From an uncultured bacterium (GTDB taxonomy: Bacteria; Hydrogenedentota; Hydrogenedentia; Hydrogenedentales; JAEUWI01), in the NCBI GenBank assembly GCA_963977445.1, contig CAXBPH010000148.1, positions 1 to 16,723 of the forward strand: a stretch of DNA of 16,723 nt, in the 5' to 3' direction. Of the stretch, positions 229-16,722 are shown in pieces. Under the pieces are notes generated by a model. It worked only from the letters and a program-made list of their open reading frames with translations. It had not been told where the DNA came from and did not search any database. A program made the translations under genes and the position numbers. Position 1 is the stretch's first letter. Each line of letters opens with the position of its first letter.

Positions 229-312
229 CGCGACTCACCCTACCAACAATAACCTTCGCACCAAGCCATCCCCACCCCTCGAATCAAGGTTACGAGGTCA
301 GTGCAGTCCCCG
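229..312. repeat. Copy 2 of the 84-bp direct repeat; overlaps the last codons and stop of iscS
   Basis: 74/84 identical to 1..84. It carries only the left half of the palindrome. The iscS TGA (298..300) lies inside it. Confidence 0.9.
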
Positions 313-1446
313 ACTCAGCGCTTCCACAATCCGCGCCACCACCACATCCACCTCCGCCGCCGTGGTCATTCGTCCCAGCGAGAAGCGAATGCTCCCGGCC
401 ATTCGTTCGTCGTCGCAGCCCATGGCCGCGAGCACGTAACTGGGTTGGCGCACGGCACTCGTGCAGGCCGATCGGGTGGAAACGTGAATTTCCGGTATGG
501 CCTTCATCAGTTGGTCGGCATTGACCTGGGCAAAACTCAAACTGGCGAAACCCGCCAGCCGTTCCACGCCGTGTCCATTGCGGCACACATCGAGCCGCGC
601 CATCAGTTCGGACTCCAGGTAGTCGCGCAGTCCGGCAACGCGGGCCTCCGCTTCGGCCTGTTCTTCGAGGGCCCACTTCGCAGCGGCCCCCAGCCCCACA
701 ATCCCCGGGACATTCAAGGTGCCCGAGCGCAGTCCCCGTTCGTGGCCTCCGCCGTGTTGCAGGGGCACACACCGCACCCGGGGCCCCTTACGCCGCACGT
801 ACAGCGCCCCTACTCCTTTGGGTCCGTAAATTTTGTGGGCACTCAAACTGAGCAGGTCGATGCAATCCCCTTCCACATCAATCGGCACCTTCCCAAAACT
901 CTGGGTGGCGTCGGTGTGAAAAAGCACGCCCTTTTCCCGACAGAGGGCACCGATCTTACCAATCGGCTGCAAGATACCCGTTTCGTTGTTGCCGTGCATC
1001 ACGGACACCAGAATGGTGGACGGCGTAATCGCGGCCGCCAATTCTTCCAGGTCGATTTGGCCCATTGCGTCCACGGAAAGATAGGTCACGTCCATCCCAC
1101 GGGTTTCCAGCCAGGCGCAACAATCCAATACGGCCTTGTGCTCCGTCGCCACCGTAATCACATGATTGCCCCGGCGCGTATAGTAGGGCGAAAAGGCCAC
1201 CCCCTGGAGGGCCAGGTTGTCGCACTCCGTGGCACCACTGGTCCACACGATTTCCCGGGGATCGGCTCCCAGCGCCGTCGCCACCTGTGTGCGGGCCCGT
1301 TCTACCGCGCTGTGGGCGTAGTCACCGCTGCCGTGTTGACGGCTTGCGGGGTTTCCATAGTGGGTGCTGAAAAAGGGCAGCATGACCTCTAGTACCCGAG
1401 GGTCCACGGGGGTCGTGGCCGCATAATCGAGATAGATATTCGTCAT
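298..1446 (-). CDS. iscS: Cysteine desulfurase, group I (IscS/NifS-like, PLP-dependent), 382 aa
   Basis: Motifs MTNIYLDYAATTP, YGNPAS, TSGATE, EHKAV, NNETG, HTDATQ, SAHKIYGPKG (PLP Lys), RSGT and catalytic loop STRSACTS. The start is set at ATG 1446, which overlaps the cyclase stop (ATGA). The extra N-terminus in the ORF track overlaps the cyclase gene. Confidence 0.93.
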   Translation of the reverse strand: MTNIYLDYAATTPVDPRVLEVMLPFFSTHYGNPASRQHGSGDYAHSAVERARTQVATALGADPREIVWTSGATECDNLALQGVAFSPYYTRRGNHVITVATEHKAVLDCCAWLETRGMDVTYLSVDAMGQIDLEELAAAITPSTILVSVMHGNNETGILQPIGKIGALCREKGVLFHTDATQSFGKVPIDVEGDCIDLLSLSAHKIYGPKGVGALYVRRKGPRVRCVPLQHGGGHERGLRSGTLNVPGIVGLGAAAKWALEEQAEAEARVAGLRDYLESELMARLDVCRNGHGVERLAGFASLSFAQVNADQLMKAIPEIHVSTRSACTSAVRQPSYVLAAMGCDDERMAGSIRFSLGRMTTAAEVDVVVARIVEALSRGLH

Positions 1447-3317
1447 GTCACTTCCGTCACCGCGCTGGACTGGTGAAGCCACTGCCGGGCATGGGCCAAG
1501 GCAGAGACCGTGTGCACCGTGGGATAAAGTTGTTCGTGGTACCAGAGCTTGGCGAAATAGAGTCCAATGGGCGCCGCTGGGAACGCCGTCCCCCCTTCCG
1601 TTGCGTCGCAGAGCCAATCGACCCCACGGTGGATGGCGTCCACGACTTCGGGAACGGCACCATCGGGGTCCTGATAACACAGGGCATCCAGCGCCAGGGC
1701 ACTTTCTTCGATACTGGGCACCACGCCTGGCGCACCGCCCCATCCGCCCTCCACACTCTGGGCCAACAGGAGCCATCCCACCCCGCGCCACCGGGCATGT
1801 TCCCAGTCGTCTCGCAAGGTGCCATAGACCGCAGCGCTTGGGACTCTTGGAACGCCCAGGGTCAGCGCCGTGCCATAGACCGGATTCTCCTGTTCCGGTG
1901 CCGCCTGGTTGCCAAACCACAGGGGCGTCCAATGGCCATCAATCGCCTGGGCAGCAAGCAGGAAGGTGAGGGCCCGCACCGCCGCCTCGTCCAACGTCGC
2001 CTGCTCGGCCTCGTCGAAGACATCCCTCCAGATAAACCAGGCCCGCAGGGTGTGGGCCGTCAAATCGGGACAACTCTTGTCGAAGGGCAACTTCCCCCAG
2101 CCCCGGCAAAAGGTGGGGATGCCCCCGTCTTTATTCTGCAAGCCCATGAGCCAACGCACACCGGCCCGCGCCTGCTCCGTAACCGAAGCGTCAACGGGTA
2201 GTCCTTCGTCGTCTTTCTCCGCCAGATGAAAGAGGGCGAGCAACGCCCCCGGTGTGTCATCCCCATCGGGCACGCCGCCAGAGAGATCGGTCCACGCCCA
2301 TCCGCCTGGCTCGGCGAGGGTGTAGGGGTGGGGCACCCGTCCCTGCTGACCGCCAATCCAATCCAGGAGTTGGCGCCGCTCGTCGTCGTTCAGGTGGCTT
2401 TCCAGGGCACCATCCCGCGCCAGGGCCTTCACACTCAGGGTGGTCACCCAGGTGCACAAATTCGTGTCAATGGGCCAGCTTCCATCGGGGCGCACGGTTT
2501 CCTCAAGAAAGCCAAGGCACGCCGATGTGACCGGGTGGGAAAGATGGCCGCTCCCAATCAGGCTCATGGCCACAAAACTCGTGAGGGGGGCCGCTTCGAG
2601 AAAGCCGCCGGACGCCGGTTGAATTTCCGCCAACACGCCCAACGTCCGGGGCCGCGCCAGGGTCCGAATCAACCGAATCAACGGGTTGCGGCTCGGGCTA
2701 CGGTGATGAATCACCGTCCCCACCGCGATAAGTGCAGGGAGGGCATAACTCACCACGGGCAGCCCCAGTCGGTTAAACCAGCGACGGGGCAGTCCGCCCA
2801 ACTCAAAGGGCAAGGCCGTTACGCCGCGCCAGGCCTTTCGTCCGGTTCCAAAACACCCGGCAAGGGCGCACAAGGTCAGGATGGGTATGGAAAAGGTTTT
2901 GTCCACGCCATAACGCGCGCTGATCGTTTTGGAAATGGCCCGGGGTGTGAGTTCCCCAATTTCACCGGCGAGCCAGAACGCCGCGCGATCCACCCCATCG
3001 GCATCTCCGTCGCCACGCTGGGCCACACGGAGCGCGGCCCAACATAAGGTTGTGGTGCTGATGTTGGTGGGACTCGCCACCGTATCGCCCCAGCCGCCGT
3101 CTTCGTTCTGATGGGTAGTGAGCCATTGGCGCGCACCGTCAATCAGTTCGTCATAGTCCGCCGTTTTGGTCTCTTGTCGGGCCAGTGTAAAGGCGCACAA
3201 GGCCGTCGCCGTGGACAGGGCACTGGACGATAACTCCCCGCACCAATAGCCCTCTGCCGTGCGGCCATTCAACAAGGCCCGTTGGGCATTCCGTAAGGTC
3301 TCTTCCAGTCGTTCCAT
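1443..3317 (-). CDS. Squalene-hopene-cyclase-like class II terpene cyclase (divergent), 624 aa
   Basis: Protonation motif PDGDDT (DxDD) after GGWAW. QW repeats WLTTHQNEDGGWG, WLMGLQNKDGG, FLLAAQAIDGHW and WLLLAQSVEGGWG. DLTAH matches the DVTAH motif of SHC. RBS AAGGA lies 5 nt before the ATG. Confidence 0.88.
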   Translation of the reverse strand: MERLEETLRNAQRALLNGRTAEGYWCGELSSSALSTATALCAFTLARQETKTADYDELIDGARQWLTTHQNEDGGWGDTVASPTNISTTTLCWAALRVAQRGDGDADGVDRAAFWLAGEIGELTPRAISKTISARYGVDKTFSIPILTLCALAGCFGTGRKAWRGVTALPFELGGLPRRWFNRLGLPVVSYALPALIAVGTVIHHRSPSRNPLIRLIRTLARPRTLGVLAEIQPASGGFLEAAPLTSFVAMSLIGSGHLSHPVTSACLGFLEETVRPDGSWPIDTNLCTWVTTLSVKALARDGALESHLNDDERRQLLDWIGGQQGRVPHPYTLAEPGGWAWTDLSGGVPDGDDTPGALLALFHLAEKDDEGLPVDASVTEQARAGVRWLMGLQNKDGGIPTFCRGWGKLPFDKSCPDLTAHTLRAWFIWRDVFDEAEQATLDEAAVRALTFLLAAQAIDGHWTPLWFGNQAAPEQENPVYGTALTLGVPRVPSAAVYGTLRDDWEHARWRGVGWLLLAQSVEGGWGGAPGVVPSIEESALALDALCYQDPDGAVPEVVDAIHRGVDWLCDATEGGTAFPAAPIGLYFAKLWYHEQLYPTVHTVSALAHARQWLHQSSAVTEVT

Positions 3318-3338
3318 GACGATCCTTTGCCGCTGCTC

Positions 3339-4217
3339 TCAGAGGCTGAGGTGCCCGAGGGCCAACAGGGCGTAGTAGGTATATTCAATATCTTCGGCTT
3401 CATCCAGCCAACTCCCACAGAATGCCTTGCCCGTCCAGAGGGAATCCAGAAAGTCGAGGCCCGGTTCCCGGAGGTGCTCCCAGGATACCCGCATCCCCGA
3501 AAGGGCATGGAGGGCCGTGGCCGTGGAAAGGAGGTCGGGCAATTCGATGCCACAAGTGGCCATGAAGCCGCCATCCCGGTGGGCCCGAGCCAATAGCCAG
3601 TCTCCGGCTTCCTCCGGTATGGGCGCGCCCAGGTGACGAAACAGGGTAATAGCGGCCGCCGTTGTGGGCGTCGTGCCCATGGGCAGGTTGGGCTCGTTGG
3701 CGTAACCACCGTCGCTGGTCCGAAGCCCCTCGACGACCCGGAGAATTCCTTCGGGGTCTGGCAGGGTCAGTCCCAGGTCCTGGTAGACGCCGAGGGCCAG
3801 AAAGCTGTGGTAAATGGTGCCGTGCTCCGCCTCGGGATGGGGACCATAGCCACCATCCGTCGTGCGACAGGTCTCAATCGCCGCCACAAGCCCCCGGGCA
3901 TCGGCGGGGTCCATGGCGCTGTCCAGGCTGGCCCAACAACGTGCCAGACACGCGCCGTGCACGAAGTCCAGCGCCGATCCATCTCCGAATCCGGAGAGAT
4001 AGGCCGTGGTCAGGGCCGTCGGTGGGGACACCTGCAGCGCAAGCAACCCTTCCAGCCCGAAAACGGAATAATAAAGGTCCTGGTTTCCGGCGCGGTCCCG
4101 GAAGCCGCCCCCTTCATGGGCCTGTGTCCCGAAAAACTCAGTGACCCGCTCCGTTGCCCCCGCCAACAACGTGGGAGCCAGCCGTGCGACCTGTAGCATT
4201 TCGAGCCTCAAACTCAC
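3339..4217 (-). CDS. Prenyltransferase/squalene oxidase repeat protein (single alpha/alpha barrel, protein-prenyltransferase beta-like), ~292 aa
   Basis: Repeated DGG[F/Y] units: GGGFRDRAGNQDLYYS, DGGYGPHP, DGGYANEP, DGGFMA...DLLST and AFCGSW...DIEYTYYALLAL. GTG 4217 has AAGGA 7 nt upstream; ATG 4199 is an alternative start. Confidence 0.82.
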   Translation of the reverse strand: MSLRLEMLQVARLAPTLLAGATERVTEFFGTQAHEGGGFRDRAGNQDLYYSVFGLEGLLALQVSPPTALTTAYLSGFGDGSALDFVHGACLARCWASLDSAMDPADARGLVAAIETCRTTDGGYGPHPEAEHGTIYHSFLALGVYQDLGLTLPDPEGILRVVEGLRTSDGGYANEPNLPMGTTPTTAAAITLFRHLGAPIPEEAGDWLLARAHRDGGFMATCGIELPDLLSTATALHALSGMRVSWEHLREPGLDFLDSLWTGKAFCGSWLDEAEDIEYTYYALLALGHLSL

Positions 4218-5961
4218 TGCAATATCCTTCGATAAGCTGCTCACTGAATATCTTACCAACGACGCGACGGAGCAAGCCTTTCAACGTCGCGTTGGGCAGA
4301 TAACGAAGGGAGCGCACCGCCTCTTCTTTATAGGCTTCCAACAACTCCTCCGCCTTCTCCAACACGCCCCGACCTTCGAGCACCGTTCGCACCGTCTCCC
4401 GCGCTTCGGCGTAGGTCGTGTCGCCGCACCAGAGGTCGGCGATGCAATCCTGCTGCGCCCCCTCGGCGGCACGCTTGTGGGCAATGGCCAGGATGAGTGA
4501 CGGACGGACCGCATCGAGATCGTGGGAATCCCCGTCATCGCTGTGGTCTTCAATATCGTCGGCAATCTGATAGGCGATGCCCAGGGCTTCGCTGTATTTC
4601 GTCAGCACGTCGTGGGTTTCCCCATCGGCCTTGCCGAGGCAGGCACCCAGACGAAGGGCCACCTCAAAGGCTGGGGCCGTCTTCATGCGGAAGATATCCA
4701 AGATTTCCATGGAGGAGAGCACCGAGCGTTTTTCCGCCCAGCACAATTCTGTGCCCTGTCCCCGGCTCAGCATTTGATGAGAAAGAGCGGCCAGCCGGAG
4801 CATCTCCACCTTGATGGCAGGCTCCGCGTCGATATCGGCGATAAGCTGATAGCCCAGACCCAACATAAAGTCGCCCACATTCAGGGCCACGGGTACGCTC
4901 CGCTCCACGTGCAAGGTCGCCGTGTCGTAACGTTTCTCATCCCCGTCTTCGATGTCATCGTGAATCAGGGATGCCTTGTGAAAACACTCGATAGCCACGG
5001 CCAGTTGGCGCAATGCGTGGCTCAGCTCGGGAGCCTCGTCGTGGTGCTCCCCTTCAATGGCCATATAGGTGCACGCCGCCAGATAGGGACGCCAACGTTT
5101 TCCATCTTTGGCCAGCCAATACCGCGCAATATCATCGGTTTCGCTGATGCATGGACCCAGCAGGTCATCCAGCGCATCCCGGGTAAACCAGGACTGCACA
5201 TCCTTCTTCAGGCCGTCCAGATCGAGGCGATAGGTTCGGTCATCCGAACTCAGATGGATCACATCCCAGACCCAATCCAAGTCCACGGTCGTGTTGATGC
5301 AATCATCCTGCAGCAGGGGAATCGCCACACTCGGAATGGCCGCCGCCTCCATATGGGGAAAACATTTTTCCAGCACGTTGAGACAACTCACCCCCACCAC
5401 CGCGTCAATCTTGCCTGTTTCGATCATCTTCCGCACAATGGCGGAACCCTCCGCCACCAACACGGCATAACCCAGCCGTTCCGCCTCCACCGAGAGATCC
5501 TGAATCGAGCAGAGGCCGCACTCTTTACAGAGCAGGCCAAATTCATCAAAAGGGGCCGGACACTTGCTCTCGACCCGCAGACATTTCGGGACGAGCAACA
5601 GGCGGCGTTCATAGGGTATCTGGGCCAGAGAGTCCGACCACGCCGCGTTGCTGACCAATACGGCCGCATAATCGGCGTACTGAGGATCCACCTGGGCGTG
5701 CTTCAGCACGGCCGCCGTGTGTTCCCGCAGTTCATCCATCGTCAAGGGCGGAACCAGTCCAACCGAACGGGCGTAGAGGCGGGTTACCTCTTTCAAATGA
5801 TTCCGAGTGGCCTTGCCATCGGGAATATCCGATTGGGCCGGGCGATAGGCCTGACGAGGCACCTTGGGCGGCAGCACCAGCGGGGGCAACGTACCATGGG
5901 ACACGCCACCGTTCTCCGGCATTGTAGCTGTCAGAGACCCGTTGCTTTTTTCTTCACTCAT
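4138..5961 (-). CDS. Cys-rich DUF116-like domain fused to a trans-polyprenyl diphosphate synthase, 607 aa
   Basis: C-terminal half: GKRWRP, FARM HKASLIHDDIED, GQ, KTA and SARM YQIADDIED. N-terminal half: RRLLLVPKCLR..CPA..LCKECGLC..VGVSC..DDCINTTVD, which I recognise as the DUF116 pattern. Confidence 0.88.
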   Translation of the reverse strand: MSEEKSNGSLTATMPENGGVSHGTLPPLVLPPKVPRQAYRPAQSDIPDGKATRNHLKEVTRLYARSVGLVPPLTMDELREHTAAVLKHAQVDPQYADYAAVLVSNAAWSDSLAQIPYERRLLLVPKCLRVESKCPAPFDEFGLLCKECGLCSIQDLSVEAERLGYAVLVAEGSAIVRKMIETGKIDAVVGVSCLNVLEKCFPHMEAAAIPSVAIPLLQDDCINTTVDLDWVWDVIHLSSDDRTYRLDLDGLKKDVQSWFTRDALDDLLGPCISETDDIARYWLAKDGKRWRPYLAACTYMAIEGEHHDEAPELSHALRQLAVAIECFHKASLIHDDIEDGDEKRYDTATLHVERSVPVALNVGDFMLGLGYQLIADIDAEPAIKVEMLRLAALSHQMLSRGQGTELCWAEKRSVLSSMEILDIFRMKTAPAFEVALRLGACLGKADGETHDVLTKYSEALGIAYQIADDIEDHSDDGDSHDLDAVRPSLILAIAHKRAAEGAQQDCIADLWCGDTTYAEARETVRTVLEGRGVLEKAEELLEAYKEEAVRSLRYLPNATLKGLLRRVVGKIFSEQLIEGYCSEFEARNATGRTAGSHVVGGGNGAGH

Positions 5962-6021
5962 CGCGCCACCAAATTCCTTTCCAAAAAACCACCACGACCA
6001 TTTACCACGGGGGTAAGGCTA

Positions 6022-7218
6022 TCAGGTGTATGCGCCGAAACCAAAAAACCAGTATTTCTTGGCAATGCGGTACAACCAGTGCTTCTCCGGAATTTCGTTG
6101 CCCGGATTATATTGGCTGTTCAACGAGCTCATCGCCTCCAACTCCGGCATGGCCTTCTTCCGGGCCGTCGTGTCGTGGGCACCGTTGCGCTCTACAATTT
6201 CTTTCAGCAGATCAGGCCGCTCCAACACAATACAACCCCGCGTGGCCTCGGCCGCCGTCTTGCGGAAATCCGCCAGCAATGGGGACTCCGTCATGGTCGT
6301 ATAGATGTCACCATCGTTGTCGTGAATCGATTCACTGGCAAACTGGATAATGGGACAGGGCTCAATATCACCCCAGGGGCTGATGTGGTGGCTGATGCCC
6401 ACCGCAGCCGGACAGAGCGCATTACCTTTGTCATCCCAATAGGCATCGACAAATCCGATGGACTTCTGGTTGCGCATTTCCACACCAAAACGACGAACCG
6501 CAAGAACCTGCTCGGGTTTCAACGCCAGTTCCGGCTTGGGGTCGGGCCCCACGGCGCGATAGGTGTGAAACCACGCGTAGTGCACGCCGCGCTGGATCAA
6601 TTCATCCACCCACGATTCCTGCACCAGGTCTTCAAAGTTATTCTGGCAGACGCTCGTCGCCACCCCCGTAATAATACGATGGCGAATGCAGGCTTCCAGG
6701 CCCCGCAGTGTGTGATTCAATACCTTCTTGCGACCCCGGCGCTCGTCACTGACGATTTCGCGGCCTTCAATGCTCAGCAACACGGTGGCATTGCCCACAC
6801 GGCGCAGTTCGGCCGCTACCTTGTCGGTGATGAAATGGCCGTTCGTAAAAATCTGAAAATAACAGTCGGGGTGGGCTTCCAGGATACGAATCAGATCGGG
6901 ATGCATGAAGGGCTCGCCACCAAGAATGCCAAAAAAGGTATTTCCATGTTTCTTGGCGTTGGTGATGAGCTTGTTCAGATCGTCGAAGGAGATCATGGAC
7001 TCTGGCGCGGCCACATCGACCCAACAGCCCTGACAACGGAGGTTGCAGCTGTTGATGATGGAGATATACAGAAAGGGCGGAAAGACTTTGCCCTTCTTCA
7101 GGCCGCGCTTGAAGCGCTCCACCGAAAGCATCCCCTTGAAGCCGAAGTTATAGCCAAACTTCCAGAGGAGCCGAAGGTCGACGGTGCGGACCATACGATA
7201 TACGAGGGACGGTAACAT
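6022..7218 (-). CDS. Radical SAM enzyme with C-terminal SPASM/twitch-like segment, ~398 aa
   Basis: CNLRCQGC (CxxxCxxC), LGGEPF and FTNG motifs. C-terminal CPAAVG...WGDIEPCP...GC. The start is set at ATG 7218, 4 nt after the upstream stop; the ORF-track start at 7335 lies inside the upstream gene. Confidence 0.9.
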   Translation of the reverse strand: MLPSLVYRMVRTVDLRLLWKFGYNFGFKGMLSVERFKRGLKKGKVFPPFLYISIINSCNLRCQGCWVDVAAPESMISFDDLNKLITNAKKHGNTFFGILGGEPFMHPDLIRILEAHPDCYFQIFTNGHFITDKVAAELRRVGNATVLLSIEGREIVSDERRGRKKVLNHTLRGLEACIRHRIITGVATSVCQNNFEDLVQESWVDELIQRGVHYAWFHTYRAVGPDPKPELALKPEQVLAVRRFGVEMRNQKSIGFVDAYWDDKGNALCPAAVGISHHISPWGDIEPCPIIQFASESIHDNDGDIYTTMTESPLLADFRKTAAEATRGCIVLERPDLLKEIVERNGAHDTTARKKAMPELEAMSSLNSQYNPGNEIPEKHWLYRIAKKYWFFGFGAYT

Positions 7219-7222
7219 AAGC

Positions 7223-8137
7223 TTAAATACCCCAATCATCCTGGGTTGGTGCGGGACGTTTCGCATCCTGGGAACTCCGGGAACGCTCCTGTCGCCGCTT
7301 AAGTTTTTCCCGCGCGCGTGTCGCACGTTCTTCAATATCGCCGGCGGAAGGCAGGGTCATCAAGACCTCATCCGGAATGTCCAGATCTTGTTTCAATTTC
7401 TTCAAACAGCGCTTGCGTTCGAGCAGAGCCTTGGATTCGTCCCGCTCTGTAGAAAACCGATTGCGCGCTTCCTTGGAACGGGATCGGAGCGACGCATAAA
7501 TATCGCCGCCCAGCAGCGATGAAATATCCACCTTCATGGCCTCACGCTGCAAATCTTCGGCACGAACCACGTCCCCGTTGATGGGACCTTTTTTATACTT
7601 GGGAAAGAGAATCGCCACTTCCGGGCACACCCGCGAACAGGCCGGGCAATCGGTTTTGCAATTGCTCTCGTTTTGCACCGTGATTTTTCCGTCCCCATCG
7701 ACCGAATACACGTCGAAGAGACAAAAACTCAGACACTGCATACAATTCGTGCAGCGGTCATAGTCGATAACGGGAAACCAGGGCTTCCAGGCCTTCAGGC
7801 TGCGGCCACCCACCGATTCACGAACGGTATGGGCCAGCTCCACGATGGCTTCGGGCAACAGCCCGCCAATATCCCGAAACTGAATTTCCCCCTCACCCGA
7901 ACCGGCCATCGCCTCTGGAGGGCGCTCGTCCTCGAACTGCCCCAATACCAACAAGGGCGATTCATCCTGGGGCGCCACGGCGCCACCGGCGAGGGGACGA
8001 CTCACTTCAAAACCTTCATCCAACAGAGCGAGCATGGCCGCCCCGCGGGTCTCTTCCTCCAGGGCGGTACTACCGTCCCCTTCGTAGAGCACCACACGCA
8101 GATTGGCTCCCTCGGTTTTGCTGGGTTGGCTCCTCAT
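7223..8137 (-). CDS. 2x[4Fe-4S] ferredoxin-domain protein with N- and C-terminal extensions, ~304 aa
   Basis: WFPVIDYDRCTNCMQCLSFC...NCKTDCPACSRVCP gives two cluster motifs. ATG 8137 overlaps the upstream stop (ATGA). The C-terminal tail is charged and helical. Confidence 0.87.
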   Translation of the reverse strand: MRSQPSKTEGANLRVVLYEGDGSTALEEETRGAAMLALLDEGFEVSRPLAGGAVAPQDESPLLVLGQFEDERPPEAMAGSGEGEIQFRDIGGLLPEAIVELAHTVRESVGGRSLKAWKPWFPVIDYDRCTNCMQCLSFCLFDVYSVDGDGKITVQNESNCKTDCPACSRVCPEVAILFPKYKKGPINGDVVRAEDLQREAMKVDISSLLGGDIYASLRSRSKEARNRFSTERDESKALLERKRCLKKLKQDLDIPDEVLMTLPSAGDIEERATRAREKLKRRQERSRSSQDAKRPAPTQDDWGI

Positions 8138-8535
8138 GACCTGCCTCCACAACCGGAACAGGGGGACAACAAGGCTTCGGAAACAGCAGCGCCACTTTCT
8201 TCCCGCATGTTCAAAATCTCCACGCCCGTTTCGGCCAGGGGGTGCTTTGCGCCGTGAAAGAGCCACCGCACGGCACGGGGGAAACACGCGGCAATGCGCA
8301 GTTGGGGTGCCGCACTCAAACGCGCCAGGGCCGGATCGTTGCGGGCCGCCATGTCACACAAATCGGGCACGGCATCAAAGGCCAGGCCGGAGGCATTCAG
8401 CGCCGCCAACACCTCCCGCTTTACTTCTTCCGGCACCACCTTGGCATAGGTACAATGACAATAGAGAATCCGGGGCATCACCCCGTCCTCCGTTGAACTT
8501 GGGGTCACTTCGTTTTCGATTCGCTCATCGGTCAT
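8134..8535 (-). CDS. Small Cys-rich protein resembling the HdrA N-terminal Fe-S domain, 133 aa
   Basis: ILYCHC...PDLC...IAACFPR matches the CHC..LC..AACSPR pattern of the heterodisulfide reductase A N-terminus. C-terminal CSGC. Coupled to cobW (TGATG) and to the next gene (ATGA). Confidence 0.75.
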   Translation of the reverse strand: MTDERIENEVTPSSTEDGVMPRILYCHCTYAKVVPEEVKREVLAALNASGLAFDAVPDLCDMAARNDPALARLSAAPQLRIAACFPRAVRWLFHGAKHPLAETGVEILNMREESGAAVSEALLSPCSGCGGRS

Positions 8536-9668
8536 CAGGTCGCCCCCACGGTATCGCGATGTACCGGTGTCGGCATGCCGGGGCGAAAGCTTTCCAGATG
8601 CTCAATGTTCAGACGAAGCCCACGGACCCGTGCCCGTTCGGCCACCACCGCTTCTACAATAGATTGGAGCTGGGCAGGATCGGCCTCGGCACGCAGGTTA
8701 AGGATAAGCGCCCCTTCCGACACCGTGTCTCTCACCGATTCACGGAGTTCCGGCACGCCATCACTGCGCACCAGACTCACGGCAGACAACCGGCCCGCGA
8801 TATCACCGCTGTCGAGGGTCATTTTCAGGTGGGCAATTTCGCCCCCCGCCCCATCCGTCGCCTGTTGAATATCCTGGGCGAGTTCTAACAACAACTCGTC
8901 GGGAACAAAACCAGTTTCCGACGTCACCTGAATGGTGCTGTTCAACCAGCCAAGGAGGGCTTCTCCTTCACCATACCGGGCGTAATCAATTTCCATGGTG
9001 GGACGAAGACCATCATTCTCTTCATGAAGAATCTGGTCAAACCAGGCATCCAGTCCCGTTTGCTCCTGCATGGAGCAGCAATGTACGGTGGCCTTCGGAA
9101 AACGCTCCTGGAGCGTGCGTGTCAGTTCGGTGCGAAGGGATTCATCGATGCTGTCGCATTTATTCAATACGATGACGTCCGCCTCTTCCAGCTGCTTCGT
9201 ATAAATGTAGACCACCTTCTCCGAAAAGGGACGTCCCGTTTGCAGGCCAAATATACGGGCCGCACGGGCCGGGTCCACCAGCACACTCAACGGCGATACG
9301 GTAAAGCGCTCCCCATAGATGCGACGCAGGGGATAGGACACGGTAGCAACCAGATCGGTGCAACTTCCCACCGGCTCGGCGAGGAACACATCGGGTGCGA
9401 CCGCATCGGAAAGGCGTTGGGAGGCTTCGAGGAGGGAGTCGAAGCGGCAGCAAAAACACCCACCAGCGATTTCTTCCACCGAAAAGCCACGGGAACGGAG
9501 CACGCCGGTATCCACCAGACCCGTGCTCTGGTCATTACTGATGAGGCCCACCCGTACTCCGGCATCTTTCAGCCGCTGTGCAAGTTCGGCGATGGCGGTC
9601 GTCTTACCCGCCCCAAGGAAACCGCCTATCATGATATAACGTGCTTTATCGCGTGGTGTCGAGGTCAT
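8535..9668 (-). CDS. COG0523 / CobW-P47K family (G3E) GTPase metallochaperone, ~377 aa
   Basis: Walker A GGFLGAGKTT, ND..G.VD, metal motif GGCFCC, Walker B AEPVG and NKCD. RBS AGGAG precedes ATGATG; its spacing favours 9668 over 9671. Confidence 0.88.
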   Translation of the reverse strand: MTSTPRDKARYIMIGGFLGAGKTTAIAELAQRLKDAGVRVGLISNDQSTGLVDTGVLRSRGFSVEEIAGGCFCCRFDSLLEASQRLSDAVAPDVFLAEPVGSCTDLVATVSYPLRRIYGERFTVSPLSVLVDPARAARIFGLQTGRPFSEKVVYIYTKQLEEADVIVLNKCDSIDESLRTELTRTLQERFPKATVHCCSMQEQTGLDAWFDQILHEENDGLRPTMEIDYARYGEGEALLGWLNSTIQVTSETGFVPDELLLELAQDIQQATDGAGGEIAHLKMTLDSGDIAGRLSAVSLVRSDGVPELRESVRDTVSEGALILNLRAEADPAQLQSIVEAVVAERARVRGLRLNIEHLESFRPGMPTPVHRDTVGAT

Positions 9669-9722
9669 CATACTCCTGACCGTGTTCTAAGCTCACGTGG
9701 ACGACTCTTAAGTATAGACAAA

Positions 9723-10211
9723 TTAAGCGGGGGAGTTATTTCCGAGGATGCGGTCTATCGCTTCGTCCAAGACGGACTTATAGGCTTCCCGATCGATACA
9801 TTCACCATCGGGCTCCCCTTCGATTCGGTACAACCAGCCCGCCTGTTGCGGGTCCCGGCCCAAAAGGTCAATATCGGCCAGCAGGGCCTCATTACCACCG
9901 CGAAAGACGCCGGAAAGGGGGGTATAGATGTCACTCACGGCCTTAAAGCCTTCAAGCCAACCAACTTCCTGGCCTTTTTCGACCAAGTCGCCAACTTTCG
10001 ATTCAAAATCCAGCTCTACGGGGTCGCCAATCATGCGGGTGGCAAATTCGGTCAGGCCAACACGCCAGATTCCGTCATCCTCGCGCCGTAACCATGCATG
10101 GGCCGCCGTAAAAAGACAGTCGCCATACAGACGGGTAGAAAACTTCGCCCGGCGGTAACGGATCGACTGCGTCGTCACAGGGGTGCTTCCGGGAGCATGC
10201 TCTTCGGTCAT
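9723..10211 (-). CDS. gcvH: Glycine cleavage H-protein-like lipoyl-carrier protein (stand-alone), 162 aa
   Basis: HAWL...RVGLTEFA..IGD...EGFKAVSDIYTPLSG...N..L...DP...GWLY. The lipoyl-acceptor Lys (K90) is retained. RBS AGGA lies 6 nt upstream. No gcvT or gcvP in the window. Confidence 0.88.
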   Translation of the reverse strand: MTEEHAPGSTPVTTQSIRYRRAKFSTRLYGDCLFTAAHAWLRREDDGIWRVGLTEFATRMIGDPVELDFESKVGDLVEKGQEVGWLEGFKAVSDIYTPLSGVFRGGNEALLADIDLLGRDPQQAGWLYRIEGEPDGECIDREAYKSVLDEAIDRILGNNSPA

Positions 10212-10390: not shown

Positions 10391-10449
10391 AGGGCAGCAT
10401 GACCCGAGGATCCACGGGGTCATGGCCGCATAATCGAGATAGATGGCCG
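10391..10449 (-). pseudogene. Relic of the 5' end of an iscS homolog
   Basis: 10391..10444 aligns to 1374..1437 with 2 substitutions, a 9-bp deletion and a 1-bp frameshifting deletion. It reads ...IYLDYAAMTP. Confidence 0.85.
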
Positions 10450-10605
10450 TCAGTTCACTCCCACCGCATCGCGATGTACCGGTGGCGGCATGCCGGGGCG
10501 AAAGCTCTCCAGATGCTCAATGTTCAGACTAAGCCCACGAACGCGGGTCCGTTCGACCACCACCACTTCGACAATAGACTGGAGCTGGGCAGGATCGGCC
10601 TCTGC
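10450..10605 (-). pseudogene. Relic of the 3' end (51 codons plus stop) of a cobW-like homolog
   Basis: Ungapped match to 8535..8690 at 139/156 identity (manual count), with no internal stops. Homology ends abruptly at 10605. Confidence 0.9.
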
Positions 10606-10699
10606 TGCGTGATGGATTTGAAGTATGCTGCCAAAAGTAGAGACTACTCCACCCTCTAGATATTGGCTTTACACTGATATCTTCAGAACGCCACACCTC

Positions 10700-13143: not shown

Positions 13144-16100
13144 TTAGCGGTGAAGTAGAACGGAAAGGTTGTTTCCCCCGCTGTTTGCACTGATGATGTC
13201 GGGCAGGTCATCACCGTTCAGATCACCGACGCCAATTCCCATCGTAAAAGTACCGCCGAGGTCATAGCGGGTAAAACCAGAGAAGAAGGTGGTGCCGTCG
13301 CCCAGGAGGATGCCAACGCACTGGTAGGGTTCATAGGAAAATACCAAATCCTGTTCGCCGTCAACGTTGACGTCGGCCACCGAGAGATAACTGATTGTTG
13401 CGGGATCGCGGTGCGCGTTCACATCGTACCGGACCGCAGGGCGAAAGAAACCGTCTCCCGCTCCGGGAATGATCGAGACCATGCCTTCCCGATCGCCGGT
13501 GACAATATCTTGAATACCGTCACGGTCGATATCGGTGAAAACGACACTGATACCGCCGATCTGAAGGTTTCTGGGTGAAGCGAAGGAGCCATCCCCGTTA
13601 CCGAGATAGAGCATCAAGGTGCCCGAGCGAGAGGCGACTAAATCGAGATTGCCATCGCCATCCACTTCACCGAGGAAAACATCCTGGATTACGTTGGCGG
13701 TCGGAATCTCGAATACAGACTGAAAAGTGCTGCCGTTAATACCAAGGCGCACATCAATGCCGCCGGTGGGCCCGGGGACGCTGAGCAGGTCGGGGATGCC
13801 ATCGCGGTCGATGTCACCCACAGCCAGTCCGCGCGCGTCGGCACCTCCCTCAACAAAGAAAACTTCTTGAAATGTGCCGTCGCCATTCCCCAGGGAAATG
13901 CCAATTTGACGGGTGTTCTGGTGGGCCGTAACCACGTCCAGCGCGGCGTCGTTGTTGATATTGGCAACCAGCATATCGAGCACGCGGTTTGCGGTGGAAG
14001 ACGCTATCGCCTCGGAGAATCCGGCGGTGCCGTCTCCCAGTAGAACGAGGATCTCGCCGTCGGAAAAGCGCGCGGTAACCAAATCGAGGTCGTCGTCGCC
14101 GTTCATGTCGACAACCGCGACGCCTGCACTTCCGCCGATGCCCGTGGGAACAGTAATCTGGGTCTCGAAGTCGCCGTTCCCCAGTCCACGTAGGACGGAA
14201 AGGTCACCAAATCCACCACCCGACGCAGTAATCACATCATTGTTGCCATCTTCGTCCGCATCGCCCGCCGCGACAAGCCGCGTGAATCGGGGCACGTCGA
14301 GCACCAGTTCGGATTGGAAACCGCCGATGCCGTCTCCGAAAAGTACGGCAACGAAATCGAAGTTGCCATCCGAGAAGGGTACGACCAGATCCAGCGCATC
14401 ATCCTGGTTAAAATCGGCCGCCGCCAGATCACGTGGGTTTCCTGAAACCGCGTATTCCACGTGATCACTAAATCCGCCCGCACCATCCCCCAGCAACACG
14501 GAAACGCCAGACTGGAAGACGGCTGCCACGGCATCGAGATTGTCATCACCATTGAGATCCGCAAGAATCAAATCATCGGGAGCCGCTGCCGTGGCAAAAT
14601 TCACCGGGTCAGCAAAGGTGCCATCCCCGTTGCCCTTGTGAAATTGAATTCGATTCAACCCGCGGTGGGCAACCACGAGATCGATGTTCCCGTCCTCGTC
14701 CACATCTGCCAATACGGGATTGATGATGTTGGTGCCTCCGATGTTCAACGGGGTTGCGGCCTGCAGGGTGCCATCGCCATTCCCAAGAAACAGGGATAGG
14801 GTTGCGCTACCGGTGTTCCCGGCAACCACATCGAGGGAGCCATCGCCGTTGATATCGGCCGTATCCAGGCGCTGGGTCTGCGTGCCCGCACTAAACTCAG
14901 ACGGGGCACCAAAGGTGCCATCGCCATTACCGACAAGGATAAAAATGCTGTTTCCGATGGCATCGGCGACCGCAGCATCCAGGTTGCCATCGTTGTCAAA
15001 ATCGCCCAATTTTATGGCTGCGGCAGAGTCGCCAACGTCGATTACCTGGGCGGGCAAATAGCTCCCGTCGCCATTGCTCAGGGCTGCACTAACCCGCGAA
15101 AAACGATCGCTGCTCGCGCCACTGACAATCACGGCCACAGCGTCCTGGGAACCGTCGTTGTTCAGATCGCCCAATGCGATATCAACCGGCGGACCGCCGA
15201 TGGCGGATCGTAAGCCAGGATAGAGAATGGTGACGCTGGCACGCACAATGATCGTGCCAACATCGGTAGTACCGCCGGGGAGGATAGTCACGCCCATCAT
15301 TTGACCGCTAAAGCTGTCTGAACCGGACTGAATCCGGGCGGTCACATCGAGTACAGGCAACACGCCGCGGTACGAGCCCGTAAGTTCAAAGGAGAACGCG
15401 CCATCCGAGCCGACGATCCCGTTGCCCCCCAGATTGGTAAATACCTCCGCACCCTCGGCAGGCGCATTGTCTTCAAAGAAGACCTGCCCAGTTACCGTCG
15501 TGGTGAAGGTGATGGGTTCACCCGTCAAAATGCCCACGTCGGTGATACCGCCGGGGATTACGGGAACGAGTCCGGAATCGAATTCCTCATTGTCGACAAC
15601 CACGGTAACGACGACGCCGACCGTCGCAGCAGGCAGGGTAAGATCGAAGGAAAAAAATCCGTTCGCATCGGTGGTGAAATCACCGCCAAACGAAATTGTG
15701 GAGATAGCCGCGCCTTCAACAGGATCTCCATTCTCATCCTGTACCAGCCCTTCGATTCGGGTTGTGATCGTATCGCGAGCGATGTTGACGCGCCGTGTCG
15801 CCGTTACGCCCTGATACGTGGCGGTAACAAAGGCAGGGCCTGAGTCGTGAGAAGAGATCAGAGCGGAATCGTCGATGGTGATGATGTCCGTATTGCTCAC
15901 GCGGTAGGCGGTGCCGGCACTGACGGGCGTGACGTCTTGCATGCGTCCGTCAAAGTAAATCGCCGTGGTCGTGGCCTGGCTGGTGGCGTCCGGCGCAAAG
16001 GTGGTGGGGTCCGCCGTAATCCGAAGTTCCTTGGGAAACAAGGGGGGAGAGGCACCTCCCGAGAAGCTACTGACATTCACCACCTGGTCTTGGCTAAGAT

Positions 16101-16722
16101 AAAAAGATTCGCTCGTAAAGTAGCGTATCTGGCCCGCCATCGCCCCCCTGCCGACCCCCACGCCGATGATACTGATTCGGTCGTCTGAAATTTGATCGGG
16201 GGGCGTCCCCGGACCACCGCGACCAAAGAGATCAGGTGCGCTCACGTTGAAGAGACAATAAGATCCGTCGTCATCCACCCGGTAAACCTGGCCATTGGCG
16301 AAGAGCGTTATGACATAGTCGGGCTCGTCCAGCACACCGACAATCTTACCGGTGACGGTATACGGGGGGCAGCTGCCTCCCCAGCCTGCAACATGGATTC
16401 CGGAACCGGGATCGCTGACAATTTCCGCGCCATCGTCGCTCACGCTGGCAGAGGTGACGATTTCAAAACGTCCCGTTTCATGATTAAAACTGAGGAAATA
16501 GGCGATGGCCCCAGGAGCCAGGCCGCTCATATTTGGATAGGTGATCTCCACCGGCGGATCGAAGTGGGTGCCGCCCGGCTGGAGGGTCCAGGCGAAGGGC
16601 GGGGACGCGCCGTCGGGCAAGGGCATGGGAATGTCATCGAAATGAACTTGATTGAGTGAGAGCCGAATGGGATTGGCCGCGTCCGGGCGGGATCCGTCCA
16701 CATTGGTGACGGAACCCGCTTT
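13144..16722 (-). CDS. Large extracellular FG-GAP/VCBS repeat protein with Ig-like and carboxypeptidase-regulatory-like domains; 5' end lies outside the window
   Basis: 14 DxDxDG-type repeats (GDLNNDGSQD through GDLNGDDLPD). One Big_2-like Ig unit (LRITADP...DVT...VTATYQG). Two CarboxypepD_reg-like units (IEGLVQDENGDPVEGA..TTDANGFF; VTGQVFFEDNAPAEGA..DGAFSF). The frame is open to the window edge (KAGSVTNVDG), so GTG 16701 is probably not the true start. Confidence 0.9.
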   Translation of the reverse strand, partial: KAGSVTNVDGSRPDAANPIRLSLNQVHFDDIPMPLPDGASPPFAWTLQPGGTHFDPPVEITYPNMSGLAPGAIAYFLSFNHETGRFEIVTSASVSDDGAEIVSDPGSGIHVAGWGGSCPPYTVTGKIVGVLDEPDYVITLFANGQVYRVDDDGSYCLFNVSAPDLFGRGGPGTPPDQISDDRISIIGVGVGRGAMAGQIRYFTSESFYLSQDQVVNVSSFSGGASPPLFPKELRITADPTTFAPDATSQATTTAIYFDGRMQDVTPVSAGTAYRVSNTDIITIDDSALISSHDSGPAFVTATYQGVTATRRVNIARDTITTRIEGLVQDENGDPVEGAAISTISFGGDFTTDANGFFSFDLTLPAATVGVVVTVVVDNEEFDSGLVPVIPGGITDVGILTGEPITFTTTVTGQVFFEDNAPAEGAEVFTNLGGNGIVGSDGAFSFELTGSYRGVLPVLDVTARIQSGSDSFSGQMMGVTILPGGTTDVGTIIVRASVTILYPGLRSAIGGPPVDIALGDLNNDGSQDAVAVIVSGASSDRFSRVSAALSNGDGSYLPAQVIDVGDSAAAIKLGDFDNDGNLDAAVADAIGNSIFILVGNGDGTFGAPSEFSAGTQTQRLDTADINGDGSLDVVAGNTGSATLSLFLGNGDGTLQAATPLNIGGTNIINPVLADVDEDGNIDLVVAHRGLNRIQFHKGNGDGTFADPVNFATAAAPDDLILADLNGDDNLDAVAAVFQSGVSVLLGDGAGGFSDHVEYAVSGNPRDLAAADFNQDDALDLVVPFSDGNFDFVAVLFGDGIGGFQSELVLDVPRFTRLVAAGDADEDGNNDVITASGGGFGDLSVLRGLGNGDFETQITVPTGIGGSAGVAVVDMNGDDDLDLVTARFSDGEILVLLGDGTAGFSEAIASSTANRVLDMLVANINNDAALDVVTAHQNTRQIGISLGNGDGTFQEVFFVEGGADARGLAVGDIDRDGIPDLLSVPGPTGGIDVRLGINGSTFQSVFEIPTANVIQDVFLGEVDGDGNLDLVASRSGTLMLYLGNGDGSFASPRNLQIGGISVVFTDIDRDGIQDIVTGDREGMVSIIPGAGDGFFRPAVRYDVNAHRDPATISYLSVADVNVDGEQDLVFSYEPYQCVGILLGDGTTFFSGFTRYDLGGTFTMGIGVGDLNGDDLPDIISANSGGNNLSVLLHR

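Follow-up and report, generated by a model that had tools for sequence, protein, structure and literature searches.

A clade of SHC-like cyclases, two-domain proteins of about 620 aa, occurs in the PVC group and in Acidobacteriota (PMC7306690; PMC12414744). A polyprenyl synthase is a published neighbor of such cyclases (PMC7306690), and the function and structure of the clade are stated as undetermined (PMC12414744). Some cyclase-bearing groups are without a known squalene route (PMC7306690), and the nearest enzymes form a sister clade of epoxy-polyprenyl cyclases, which act on head-to-tail (epoxy-)polyprenyl chains (PMC12414744). The SHC-like enzymes have no known substrate or product and are suggested as a possible source of still undiscovered polycyclic terpenoids that would bear on the fossil record (PMC7306690, PMC12414744).

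Other described systems bear on the partners of the cyclase discussed below. Hopanoid (hpn) clusters share with the present locus a DxDD class II cyclase encoded beside a radical SAM enzyme. The bacterial membrane-spanning lipid synthase Mss, also a radical SAM enzyme, joins fatty-acid tails, and its homologues are recognized by at least 30% identity and E ≤1e-50 to assayed enzymes (PMC13159169). A 2026 review proposes that the auxiliary Fe-S cluster of Tes and Mss, and the cobalamin of Grs, hold the first radical during C-C bond formation (PMC13459092). A fusion of DUF116 to a prenyl synthase is likewise already in print (PMC5898192). An earlier, sequence-only reading of the locus had called its pathway a candidate undescribed one; this does not extend to the cyclase clade or the DUF116 fusion, and the pathway itself is uncharacterized. 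The radical SAM slot, the Fe-S genes, the single-barrel partner and the accessory module are not described in the accessible text of PMC7306690 and PMC12414744.

Organization and conservation of the operon

The window, the whole 16,723-nt stretch of DNA that was analyzed, contains an operon of nine open reading frames, all intact and all on the minus strand (Table 1). The junctions, taken in gene order, are 51, -1 (TGATG), -4 (ATGA), 4, 60, -80, 21 and -4 (ATGA) bases, and these recomputed values match the overlaps and gaps first reported for the nine co-oriented genes. Their spacing suggests that the genes are co-transcribed.

Table 1. Genes of the operon, listed 5' to 3' in the direction of the genes
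Feature	Coordinates	Strand	Remarks
GcvH-like carrier, 162 aa	9723..10211	-	accessory; PF01597 74.7 bits
CobW/G3E-type metallochaperone GTPase, 378 aa	8535..9671	-	accessory; PF02492 86.3 bits
133-aa four-Cys protein, probable Fe-S domain	8134..8535	-	core; invariant Cys
2x[4Fe-4S] ferredoxin-domain protein, 304 aa	7223..8137	-	core; Fer4 families
Radical SAM enzyme, 398 aa	6022..7218	-	PF04055; CNxxCxGC + three C-terminal Cys
DUF116 (Cys-rich) + trans-polyprenyl diphosphate synthase fusion, 607 aa	4138..5961	-	core; PF01976, PF00348 above cut-off
Single alpha/alpha-toroid (single-barrel) protein, 292 aa, GTG start	3339..4217	-	core; PF00432
SHC-like class II terpenoid cyclase, 624 aa	1443..3317	-	core; PF13249 + PF13243
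IscS-type cysteine desulfurase, 382 aa	298..1446	-	accessory; NF002806

Eighty genome loci were fetched by way of the prenyl synthase, and 45 of them are flanked by 6 kb or more on each side. Eight genes (all but iscS) are found in 36 of these well-flanked loci, many of which come from related Vicinamibacterales and are hence not independent; order and strand are the same in 35, and all nine genes are present in 28. The operon is distributed over about six phyla, and the co-occurrence of its genes is far beyond chance. The ferredoxin gene is present in 45/45. The position of iscS varies: it follows the cyclase in 17 loci, precedes gcvH in 12, lies further off in 4 (inside the fetched locus in 33/45) and is missing from 12.

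Three genome loci without the operon radical SAM enzyme have a B12-type radical SAM protein in the same slot. Among 80 metagenome loci with this B12-type enzyme, 66 of the 67 with sufficient room have the prenyl synthase after it, and 69 of 72 have the ferredoxin in front. Of the 43 loci of this second form whose upstream sequence is long enough, a single one has iscS, gcvH or cobW, and iscS never follows the cyclase (0/30), while the other six slots are kept. From the comparison of the two forms, the minimal gene set would be the six core genes. The replacement proteins are about 530 aa long, combine a radical SAM core with a B12-type region at the N terminus, and bear generic names in databases. 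We presume a sequence kinship to the Grs/Gmm/Ted-type B12 radical SAM lipid enzymes; the criterion for a Grs GDGT ring synthase is E ≤1e-40 with at least 20% identity to S. acidocaldarius GrsA/GrsB. The architecture agrees with the description of Grs in the 2026 review (PMC13459092). Occupation of the same slot does not in itself imply C-C coupling, because methylases and a desaturase are also found among B12 radical SAM lipid enzymes, and the Fe-S and B12 forms may make different products.

A proposed route to a cyclic isoprenoid lipid

This widely conserved bacterial operon very probably makes a cyclic isoprenoid lipid without squalene, and the product is highly likely to be a non-hopanoid cyclic isoprenoid. 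The general proposal of the sequence-only reading is supported: a conserved isoprenoid pathway, distinct from that of hopanoids, in which a prenyl synthase and a class II cyclase work with a radical SAM enzyme fed by the ferredoxin. In the full scheme, to which we assign a probability of roughly 0.5, the six-gene core would make a cyclic polyprenoid lipid, again without squalene, from a head-to-tail chain that is both cyclized and radically C-C linked.

The DUF116-prenyl synthase, judging from its motifs, would build a head-to-tail prenyl diphosphate whose chain is probably at least C20. The single-barrel protein might then bind this prenyl diphosphate and take care of its diphosphate end, through transfer to a non-thiol acceptor or by passing it on. 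As a third step, the SHC-like enzyme would protonate the terminal alkene through its DxDD motif and close several rings. Supplied with electrons by the 133-aa Fe-S protein and the ferredoxin, the radical SAM enzyme would abstract hydrogen from unactivated chain carbons, and the outcome would be a C-C bond that either joins two chains (as in Mss and Tes) or closes one more ring (as in Grs). Finally, the IscS, the CobW GTPase and the GcvH-like carrier would be a dispensable support module that probably serves to assemble or repair Fe-S and metal sites. The sequence of these steps is not constrained.

The prenyl synthase and the supply of squalene

The fusion protein has both marks of a trans-isoprenyl diphosphate synthase, a PF00348 domain (132.2 bits against a cut-off of 27) and two DDxxD motifs (D335/D336/D339 and D468/D469/D472). 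Two small residues, A330 and S331, stand just before the first DDxxD, where residue size presumably serves as a chain-length rule, and the N-terminal GKRxRP-type motif, which we take to be the IPP site, is intact. Downstream of the first DDxxD, an invariant Tyr345 comes after Arg344, at a position usually taken by a second Arg in chain elongases. The DUF116 part has seven conserved Cys, and its structure model gave no clear fold match. The C-terminal Cys581 is conserved, also in 8/8 loci where the next gene does not overlap.

Squalene/phytoene synthase (PF00494) has 0 matches in the host genome, whose 94.23% completeness leaves room for a missed gene. Of 39 other carriers, 11 also lack it, including one whose genome is a single chromosome of 7.9 Mb, and the remaining 28 have it.

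These absences would also suit a pathway in which coupling comes first: by a new route, the Fe-S-fused prenyl synthase, the radical SAM enzyme or both would link a pair of prenyl chains to give a squalene-like hydrocarbon, from which the cyclase would then make an unusual polycyclic triterpenoid. Tyr345, the DUF116 cysteines and a cyclase with the two-domain size and DxDD motif of squalene cyclases point the same way. We nevertheless consider this order of events unlikely, given that the GKRxRP-type motif and both DDxxD motifs are intact and that Mss-type coupling takes place at chain tails, not at C1. The literature cuts both ways, with cyclase-bearing groups without a known squalene route on the one hand (PMC7306690) and head-to-tail substrates in the nearest characterized cyclase clade on the other (PMC12414744).

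The radical SAM enzyme

The radical SAM enzyme has no close NCBIfam family (best score 60 bits, best E 2e-16) and no cobalamin domain in Pfam and NCBIfam searches. Its three auxiliary C-terminal cysteines are C269, C288 and C329. A profile made from five proxies with the six Mss blocks, which were assigned from the block descriptions in the Mss paper and are not assayed enzymes, scores the operon enzyme at 202 bits (E 3.8e-59) and the other radical SAM proteins of the genome at 44 bits or less. Pairwise identity to these proxies is 26-30% over 254-352 aligned residues (E 2.6e-49 to 3.9e-34), at or below the published homologue cut-off (PMC13159169). Measured against the text description in that paper, blocks I-IV are largely present and blocks V-VI partly so (IEPC; no GG before the Cys; fewer Pro). 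In a small tree with only five outgroups, all long-branched, the operon and Mss-like clades group at 96/91 with each side at 98/95, and the operon enzymes form a sister clade instead of nesting inside the Mss-like one.

As far as sequence goes, then, the enzyme is sister to proteins with the Mss blocks. It appears to share with Mss the CNxxCxGC, GGEP, GN..S.EG..D.RRG and (V/I)EPC blocks and the three auxiliary Cys; it differs in several block V/VI residues and in its setting among isoprenoid genes, whereas the substrate of Mss is fatty-acyl tails. Tes is a weak match (E 4e-4). The earlier suggestion that this enzyme couples the chain gains support from the kinship, with the reaction itself still an extrapolation, and the kinship points to lipid-tail-joining chemistry as worth testing.

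A rather small chance remains that the enzyme is confined to tailoring (methylation, desaturation or HpnH-like adenosyl addition) of a cyclized polyprenoid, which the two operon forms would decorate differently. HpnH, which adds 5'-deoxyadenosyl to a cyclic terpene, is a precedent, and the two radical SAM classes in one slot fit, as do the methylases and desaturase among B12 lipid enzymes. However, the HpnH family (TIGR03470, cut-off 225 bits) is not among the best 25 of the 46 families matched, and the non-B12 enzyme lacks a cobalamin domain and is closest to tail-coupling Mss-like proteins.

Iron-sulfur proteins, accessory genes and the single-barrel protein

In the preferred scheme of cyclization plus C-C linkage, electrons would come from two Fe-S proteins. 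The 133-aa protein has four invariant Cys (C26, C28, C60 and C84) and is often fused to ferredoxin; a 4Fe-4S domain was found in 18 of 21 longer homologues tested. The label HdrA-like, given to it before, is faintly suggested by comparison with the HdrA N-domain (hhalign E 0.0035, probability 9%; best hmmsearch E 0.073), in which the alignment places three of the four invariant Cys, as well as the AC-x-PR and N-x-R motifs, in register; a PDB search gave no HdrA match.

The GcvH-like protein keeps the lipoyl-site Lys90 in a changed motif (K in 62/62 rows, aligned with the Lys of the top PDB H-protein) and falls below the NCBIfam GcvH equivalog cut-offs (70.5 vs 115.85, 86.2 vs 117). Another GcvH-type gene lies on C11. 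The CobW-type GTPase has a conserved GCxCC motif (C72/C74/C75) and is below all NCBIfam cut-offs; the IscS-type protein reaches 305.6 bits against a cut-off of 304 for NF002806 and has the catalytic Cys328. Because the second operon form is mostly without these three proteins, they are accessory, which makes sulfur insertion into the product unlikely; the sequence-only reading had counted them, with IscS as sulfur donor, among the parts of the pathway, and they do not belong to its core.

The predicted structure of the single-barrel protein (pLDDT 97.4) is closest to GGTase-I beta (Z 25.9, rmsd 2.8 over 265 residues). The top seven matches are all beta subunits of protein prenyltransferases (FTase, GGTase-I, RabGGTase; Z 22.6-25.9, identity 12-17%), cyclases reach at most 19.6, and Foldseek agrees. 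We take the zinc ligands of these subunits to be Asp-x-Cys ... His. The Asp of the PDVC motif, presumably one of these ligands, has its aligned counterpart in Asp228 and is kept, but the Cys and His are replaced by Leu230 and Tyr279 in 63 of 64 alignment rows, the His position being placed from the repeat register. Unlike FTase and GGTase systems, the operon has no recognized alpha subunit. The model thus shows a protein prenyltransferase beta-subunit fold without two zinc ligands, and since it is the Cys and His ligands of thiol prenyltransferases that are missing, the transfer role once proposed for the barrel remains a guess.

A sulfur-containing product, formed if IscS, the lipoyl-type carrier and the radical SAM enzyme inserted sulfur as in lipoate synthesis or if the barrel prenylated a thiol, appears improbable. 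The frequent presence of iscS in the locus, the invariant carrier Lys and the fold shared with thiol prenyltransferases are what recommend it; the near-absence of the three accessory genes from the B12 form, the lost Cys and His ligands and the lack of a LipA family among the best 25 matched by the radical SAM enzyme tell against it.

The cyclase

The cyclization step of the preferred scheme falls to a protein that fits the published clade described as SHC-like and of unknown function. With its catalytic residues kept, it is inside the 550-700 aa range of PMC12414744, and a polyprenyl synthase adjoins it, a feature of the clade in the supplement of PMC7306690. Its DxDD motif (D351-x-D353-D354; D in 47/47 rows) aligns to the DVDD of the top PDB squalene-hopene cyclase, 1gsz, and aromatic cavity residues are conserved. 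The DxDD motif suggests an alkene substrate. Lon15, AtoE and SqhC cyclize head-to-tail chains, but Lon15 and AtoE use epoxidized substrates and SqhC a C35 curcumene; no epoxidase was recognized in this operon.

The sequence-only reading recognized no squalene synthesis or hopanoid tailoring genes, and profile searches bore this out: there is no hpnCDE, sqs, hpnG or hpnH-grade match inside the operon. Unlike hpn clusters, the operon has a built-in prenyl synthase and a cyclase far below the SHC cut-off (69.8 bits against 431.1 for TIGR01507). A hopanoid cluster was rejected on three counts: the missed SHC cut-off, the lack of a squalene synthesis gene in operon or host, and a radical SAM enzyme that is not HpnH. 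An SHC above cut-off is lacking in 29 of the 39 other carriers. That this is an ordinary hopanoid cyclase with unrelated neighbors, making diploptene from host squalene, is very improbable despite the kept DxDD and the PF00494 in 28 carriers, given the low TIGR01507 score, a host without squalene synthase, the fixed gene order and the canonical SHC that 10 of the 39 carriers have elsewhere as well.

Wider significance

The operon adds substrate-making and tailoring genes around the SHC-like cyclase, and with the core reduced to six genes the proposed pathway is directly testable. If the radical step is indeed C-C coupling, Mss/Tes-type chemistry would extend to bacterial isoprenoids, with Fe-S and B12 solutions to one step. 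It is possible, if speculative, that several phyla share a squalene-independent route in which the SHC-like cyclase polycyclizes a head-to-tail polyprenyl chain and one or the other radical SAM class links a pair of such chains at unactivated carbons. The outcome would be a cyclic isoprenoid of bipolar or membrane-spanning type in bacteria, a class of lipid not found in the literature searched. Cheilanthanes are listed among biomarkers without a fully characterized pathway, and it is quite doubtful, though conceivable, that the monomer of such a lipid is the biological source of these orphan tricyclic terpane fossils. Of 301 Planctomycetota genomes searched, 69 contain the single-barrel gene, and the product could accordingly be widespread in seas, sediments and soils. 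Two cultured carriers are Gemmata obscuriglobus, with an SHC-like protein (PMC12414744), and Pirellula staleyi, with the DUF116 fusion.

Gene content and conservation of the operon

The nine genes of the operon lie on the minus strand of the window, and every reading frame is intact. The sequence-only reading had described overlapping starts and stops, one 80-bp overlap and otherwise short gaps, and these junctions were confirmed (successive gaps of 51, -1, -4, 4, 60, -80, 21 and -4 bases). Pfam and NCBIfam identify a GcvH-like protein, a CobW-type GTPase, a 2x[4Fe-4S] ferredoxin, a prenyltransferase-repeat barrel, an SHC-like cyclase and an IscS-type desulfurase, as well as a DUF116 domain fused to a polyprenyl synthase; the same databases gave no family for the 133-aa protein and no close family for the radical SAM enzyme. 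A promoter and terminator scan of both operon ends found no telling site.

Searching genomes with the alignment of the prenyl synthase returned at least 585 relatives, from which 80 loci were kept, and conservation was counted over the 45 of these flanked by 6 kb or more on either side. Eight genes (all but iscS) are present in 36 of the 45, in the same order in 35, so the genes do co-occur in other genomes, as the sequence-only reading requires; all nine occur together in 28. The position of iscS varies: it follows the cyclase gene in 17 loci, precedes gcvH in 12, lies further away in 4 and is absent from 12. Record titles place the operon in Hydrogenedentota, Acidobacteriota, Planctomycetota, Armatimonadota, Verrucomicrobiota and Gemmatimonadota, many of the rows being related Vicinamibacterales, and the closest named relatives are Hydrogenedentota MAGs at 93% identity. 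The operon is real and conserved, and it has in part already been noted in print. No account of the operon or of the Mss link discussed below was found in the literature searched, which took in few subscription papers; PMC13274423, 10.1101/2025.10.20.683597, 10.1101/2022.08.15.504015 and 10.64898/2026.01.29.702649 were among the sources.

Among close kin the distribution is patchy. The barrel gene occurs in all 8 other genomes of the same genus and in only 2 of 32 others, and the radical SAM enzyme was found in 8 of 61 genomes of the phylum. In Planctomycetota, 69 of 301 genomes carry the barrel gene; among 20 of the 69 that were examined, the operon is rearranged in some and the barrel stands by itself in 12 (about 9 kb seen on each side). 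An SHC-like gene was present elsewhere in the genome in 4 of 4 stand-alone cases tested; in a fifth genome tested it lay nearby. The stand-alone Planctomycetota homologues (L199-L204, L207, L209-L211, L213 and L215) are more divergent and retain the polar set given below for the barrel.

A second form of the operon

The usual radical SAM enzyme is missing from 5 of the 45 loci. Two of these are reduced loci, and in the remaining three (L043, L057 and L073) a B12-type radical SAM enzyme of 530-560 aa fills the same slot; alignment A5 excludes L073 owing to a stop codon within its range. A metagenome scan with the B12-type enzyme turned up 146 relatives, and 80 of these were kept, on contigs that are partly redundant. 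Where there was room to see the neighbors, the prenyl synthase gene follows directly in 66 of 67 loci and the ferredoxin gene precedes in 69 of 72. Across the 80 metagenome loci, gcvH and cobW were found in 3 and iscS in 1; with at least 4.2 kb visible upstream, accessory genes occur in 1 of 43 loci, and iscS follows the cyclase gene in none of 30. These counts therefore define a core of six slots, namely the 133-aa protein, ferredoxin, radical SAM enzyme, synthase, barrel and cyclase, and the GcvH-like, CobW and IscS proteins are accessory. Enzyme type does not strictly dictate the accessory genes: gcvH and cobW are retained in the three genome loci that carry the B12 form. Across 201 Acidobacteriota genomes, the closest relatives of the B12-type enzyme outside the operon are B12 radical SAM proteins of a generic kind (24-29% identity). 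The enzyme may resemble the GDGT ring synthase (Grs) family.

The radical SAM enzyme and its kinship with Mss-like proteins

The motif pattern of the usual radical SAM enzyme resembles the six blocks described for Mss, the membrane-spanning lipid synthase that joins lipid tails, in the supplement of PMC13159169; blocks I-IV are largely present and V-VI in part. An Mss-like profile was built from five proteins picked by that block description rather than from assayed Mss: two from plasmids and three from gut-derived records, two of the latter being named proteins of [Ruminococcus] lactaris and Roseburia. Against this profile the window enzyme reaches 202 bits (E 3.8e-59) and the other radical SAM proteins of the genome reach 44 at most; pairwise identities to the Mss-like proteins are 26-30%. 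A tree of 23 rows puts the operon enzymes and the Mss-like proteins in separate clades (98/95 each), the Mss-like one taking in a shorter Methanosphaera protein. The two clades group together at 96/91 against five other radical SAM proteins, which are long branches. With these proteins as proxies for Mss, the separate clades thus make the operon enzyme a member of a sister family and not Mss itself. Three C-terminal cysteines are invariant, a pattern compatible with a single auxiliary cluster that has an open iron. Atlas searches gave no informative name for this enzyme. The plasmid genes with Mss blocks (L094:5809-7110 and L107:2254-3633) are on Klebsiella pneumoniae (IncF) and Escherichia albertii plasmids, near a rep gene.

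The synthase, the 133-aa protein and the barrel

Both DDxxD motifs of the synthase are kept, with Ala or Ser preceding the first, and an invariant Arg-Tyr follows it at residues 344-345. Chain elongases usually have Arg-Arg after the first DDxxD, and the Arg-Tyr may change substrate use. The C-terminal cysteine of the synthase is retained in loci that lack the 80-bp overlap. Its DUF116 part has seven conserved cysteines, and a model of it (pLDDT 78.3) matched mostly generic Rossmann and periplasmic-binding folds, with a best Z of 5.7. The DUF116 fusion was noted, and electron transfer predicted, in PMC5898192; the cluster in 10.1101/2025.11.21.689855 is a different one, in which DUF116 is stand-alone and near an SHC.

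The 133-aa protein, with 701 representatives, has four invariant cysteines and at most a weak likeness to the HdrA N-domain. Among 21 longer homologues picked from 150 listed, 18 have a 4Fe-4S domain fused to it. A PDB sequence search with its alignment returned only repeat proteins of designed origin plus a single weak match, and atlas searches gave no informative name.

For the modelled barrel (pLDDT 97.4) the best fold matches are protein prenyltransferase beta subunits, at Z 25.9 and rmsd 2.8 over 265 residues; cyclases reach at most 19.6. Of the zinc ligands of those subunits the barrel retains only the Asp. A conserved polar set (R42, D47, Y49, Y50, Y136, D228, D276, E278, Y279 and Y282) is largely kept in distant homologues, suggesting an active site of another kind than that of the zinc prenyltransferases. 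Among 8000 longer candidates, three hits suggested barrel fusions, but each of them resembles a frameshifted or chimeric gene prediction, and long open frames in genomes are overlapping frames; no genuine fusion has emerged.

The radical step and the product

Gene set, order, motifs, folds, Mss-like kinship, slot replacement and the dispensability of the accessory genes are observed here; we infer every reaction of the pathway. On the simplest reading, a prenyl chain would be built, a class II cyclisation would occur and one radical C-H activation would take place. The radical step is most likely C-C bond formation. This is favored because the nearest characterized relative of one of the two enzymes filling the slot couples lipid tails, and because a review (PMC13459092) proposes Fe-S (Mss and Tes, which also joins chains) and cobalamin (Grs) as alternative means of holding the first radical. 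The result is a sharper, testable hypothesis for the radical step.

Coupling ahead of cyclisation ranks first of four rival explanations. Second comes a radical step that serves for tailoring only, and third a sulfur-containing product. The last, an ordinary hopanoid, fares worst: the sequence-only view that this is not a hopanoid cluster holds up, the cyclase scoring 69.8 bits against an NCBIfam SHC cut-off of 431.1 and no squalene/phytoene synthase match being seen in the host genome (94.23% complete).

Besides the operon enzyme, no cyclase of this kind was found in the host. The D351-x-D353-D354 motif of the operon cyclase is kept in 47 of 47 rows, and aromatic positions are conserved too. 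Tricyclohexaprenol has been an idea put forward to explain tricyclic terpanes. Among 39 carrier genomes, PF00494 is absent from 11 and present in 28, and canonical SHC passes the cut-off in 10; carriage of the operon is thus independent of genes for squalene and hopanoids. SHC-like enzymes with a polyprenyl synthase nearby, and a predicted non-squalene precursor, appear in PMC7306690, and PMC12414744 calls the function and structure of the SHC-like clade undetermined.

Surroundings of the operon

Features of the window around the operon
Feature	Position	Remarks
REP-like repeats, downstream of iscS	1-312	84-nt direct repeat (88%)
25-nt inverted repeat	167-228	
Cyclase	1443-3317	624 aa
Barrel	3339-4217	292 aa
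DUF116-synthase	4138-5961	
Decayed remnant, just upstream of operon	10394-10623	cobW 3'-end copy joined directly to frameshifted iscS 5'-start copy
Two ORFs, 186 and 225 aa	10700-12309	no Pfam/NCBIfam match
FadX-type family fragment	12526-13104	matches C-terminal part only (373-506 of 523)
Large FG-GAP repeat protein with carboxypeptidase-regulatory-like domains	13144-16722	runs past window end

The cobW part of the remnant covers 161 nt at 88% (77% over 57 aa) and the iscS part 47 nt at 85%. It looks like an old duplicate that lost everything from the start of the 133-aa gene to the start of iscS; a search for it in 81 loci matched only the genes themselves. A second CobW-type paralogue (G000:C26 9709-10674, locus L081; 43% identity) has no other operon genes in the 15 kb fetched. 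The region of the two ORFs is low in GC (48-49% against 55-65% in the operon), and the FadX-type fragment is probably a broken gene.

PQQ_2/BamB-like beta-propeller genes adjoin the operon in 37 of the 80 loci of the B12 form and in 13 of the 81 from genomes (for example L176:4750-6096). Such propellers are common in these phyla, so their link to the operon may be weak. Upstream of the B12-form operon, NuoF-like genes occur in 10 of 80 loci and Fe-S flavoprotein genes in 13 of 80. The REP-like repeats have copies on many further contigs of the host genome.
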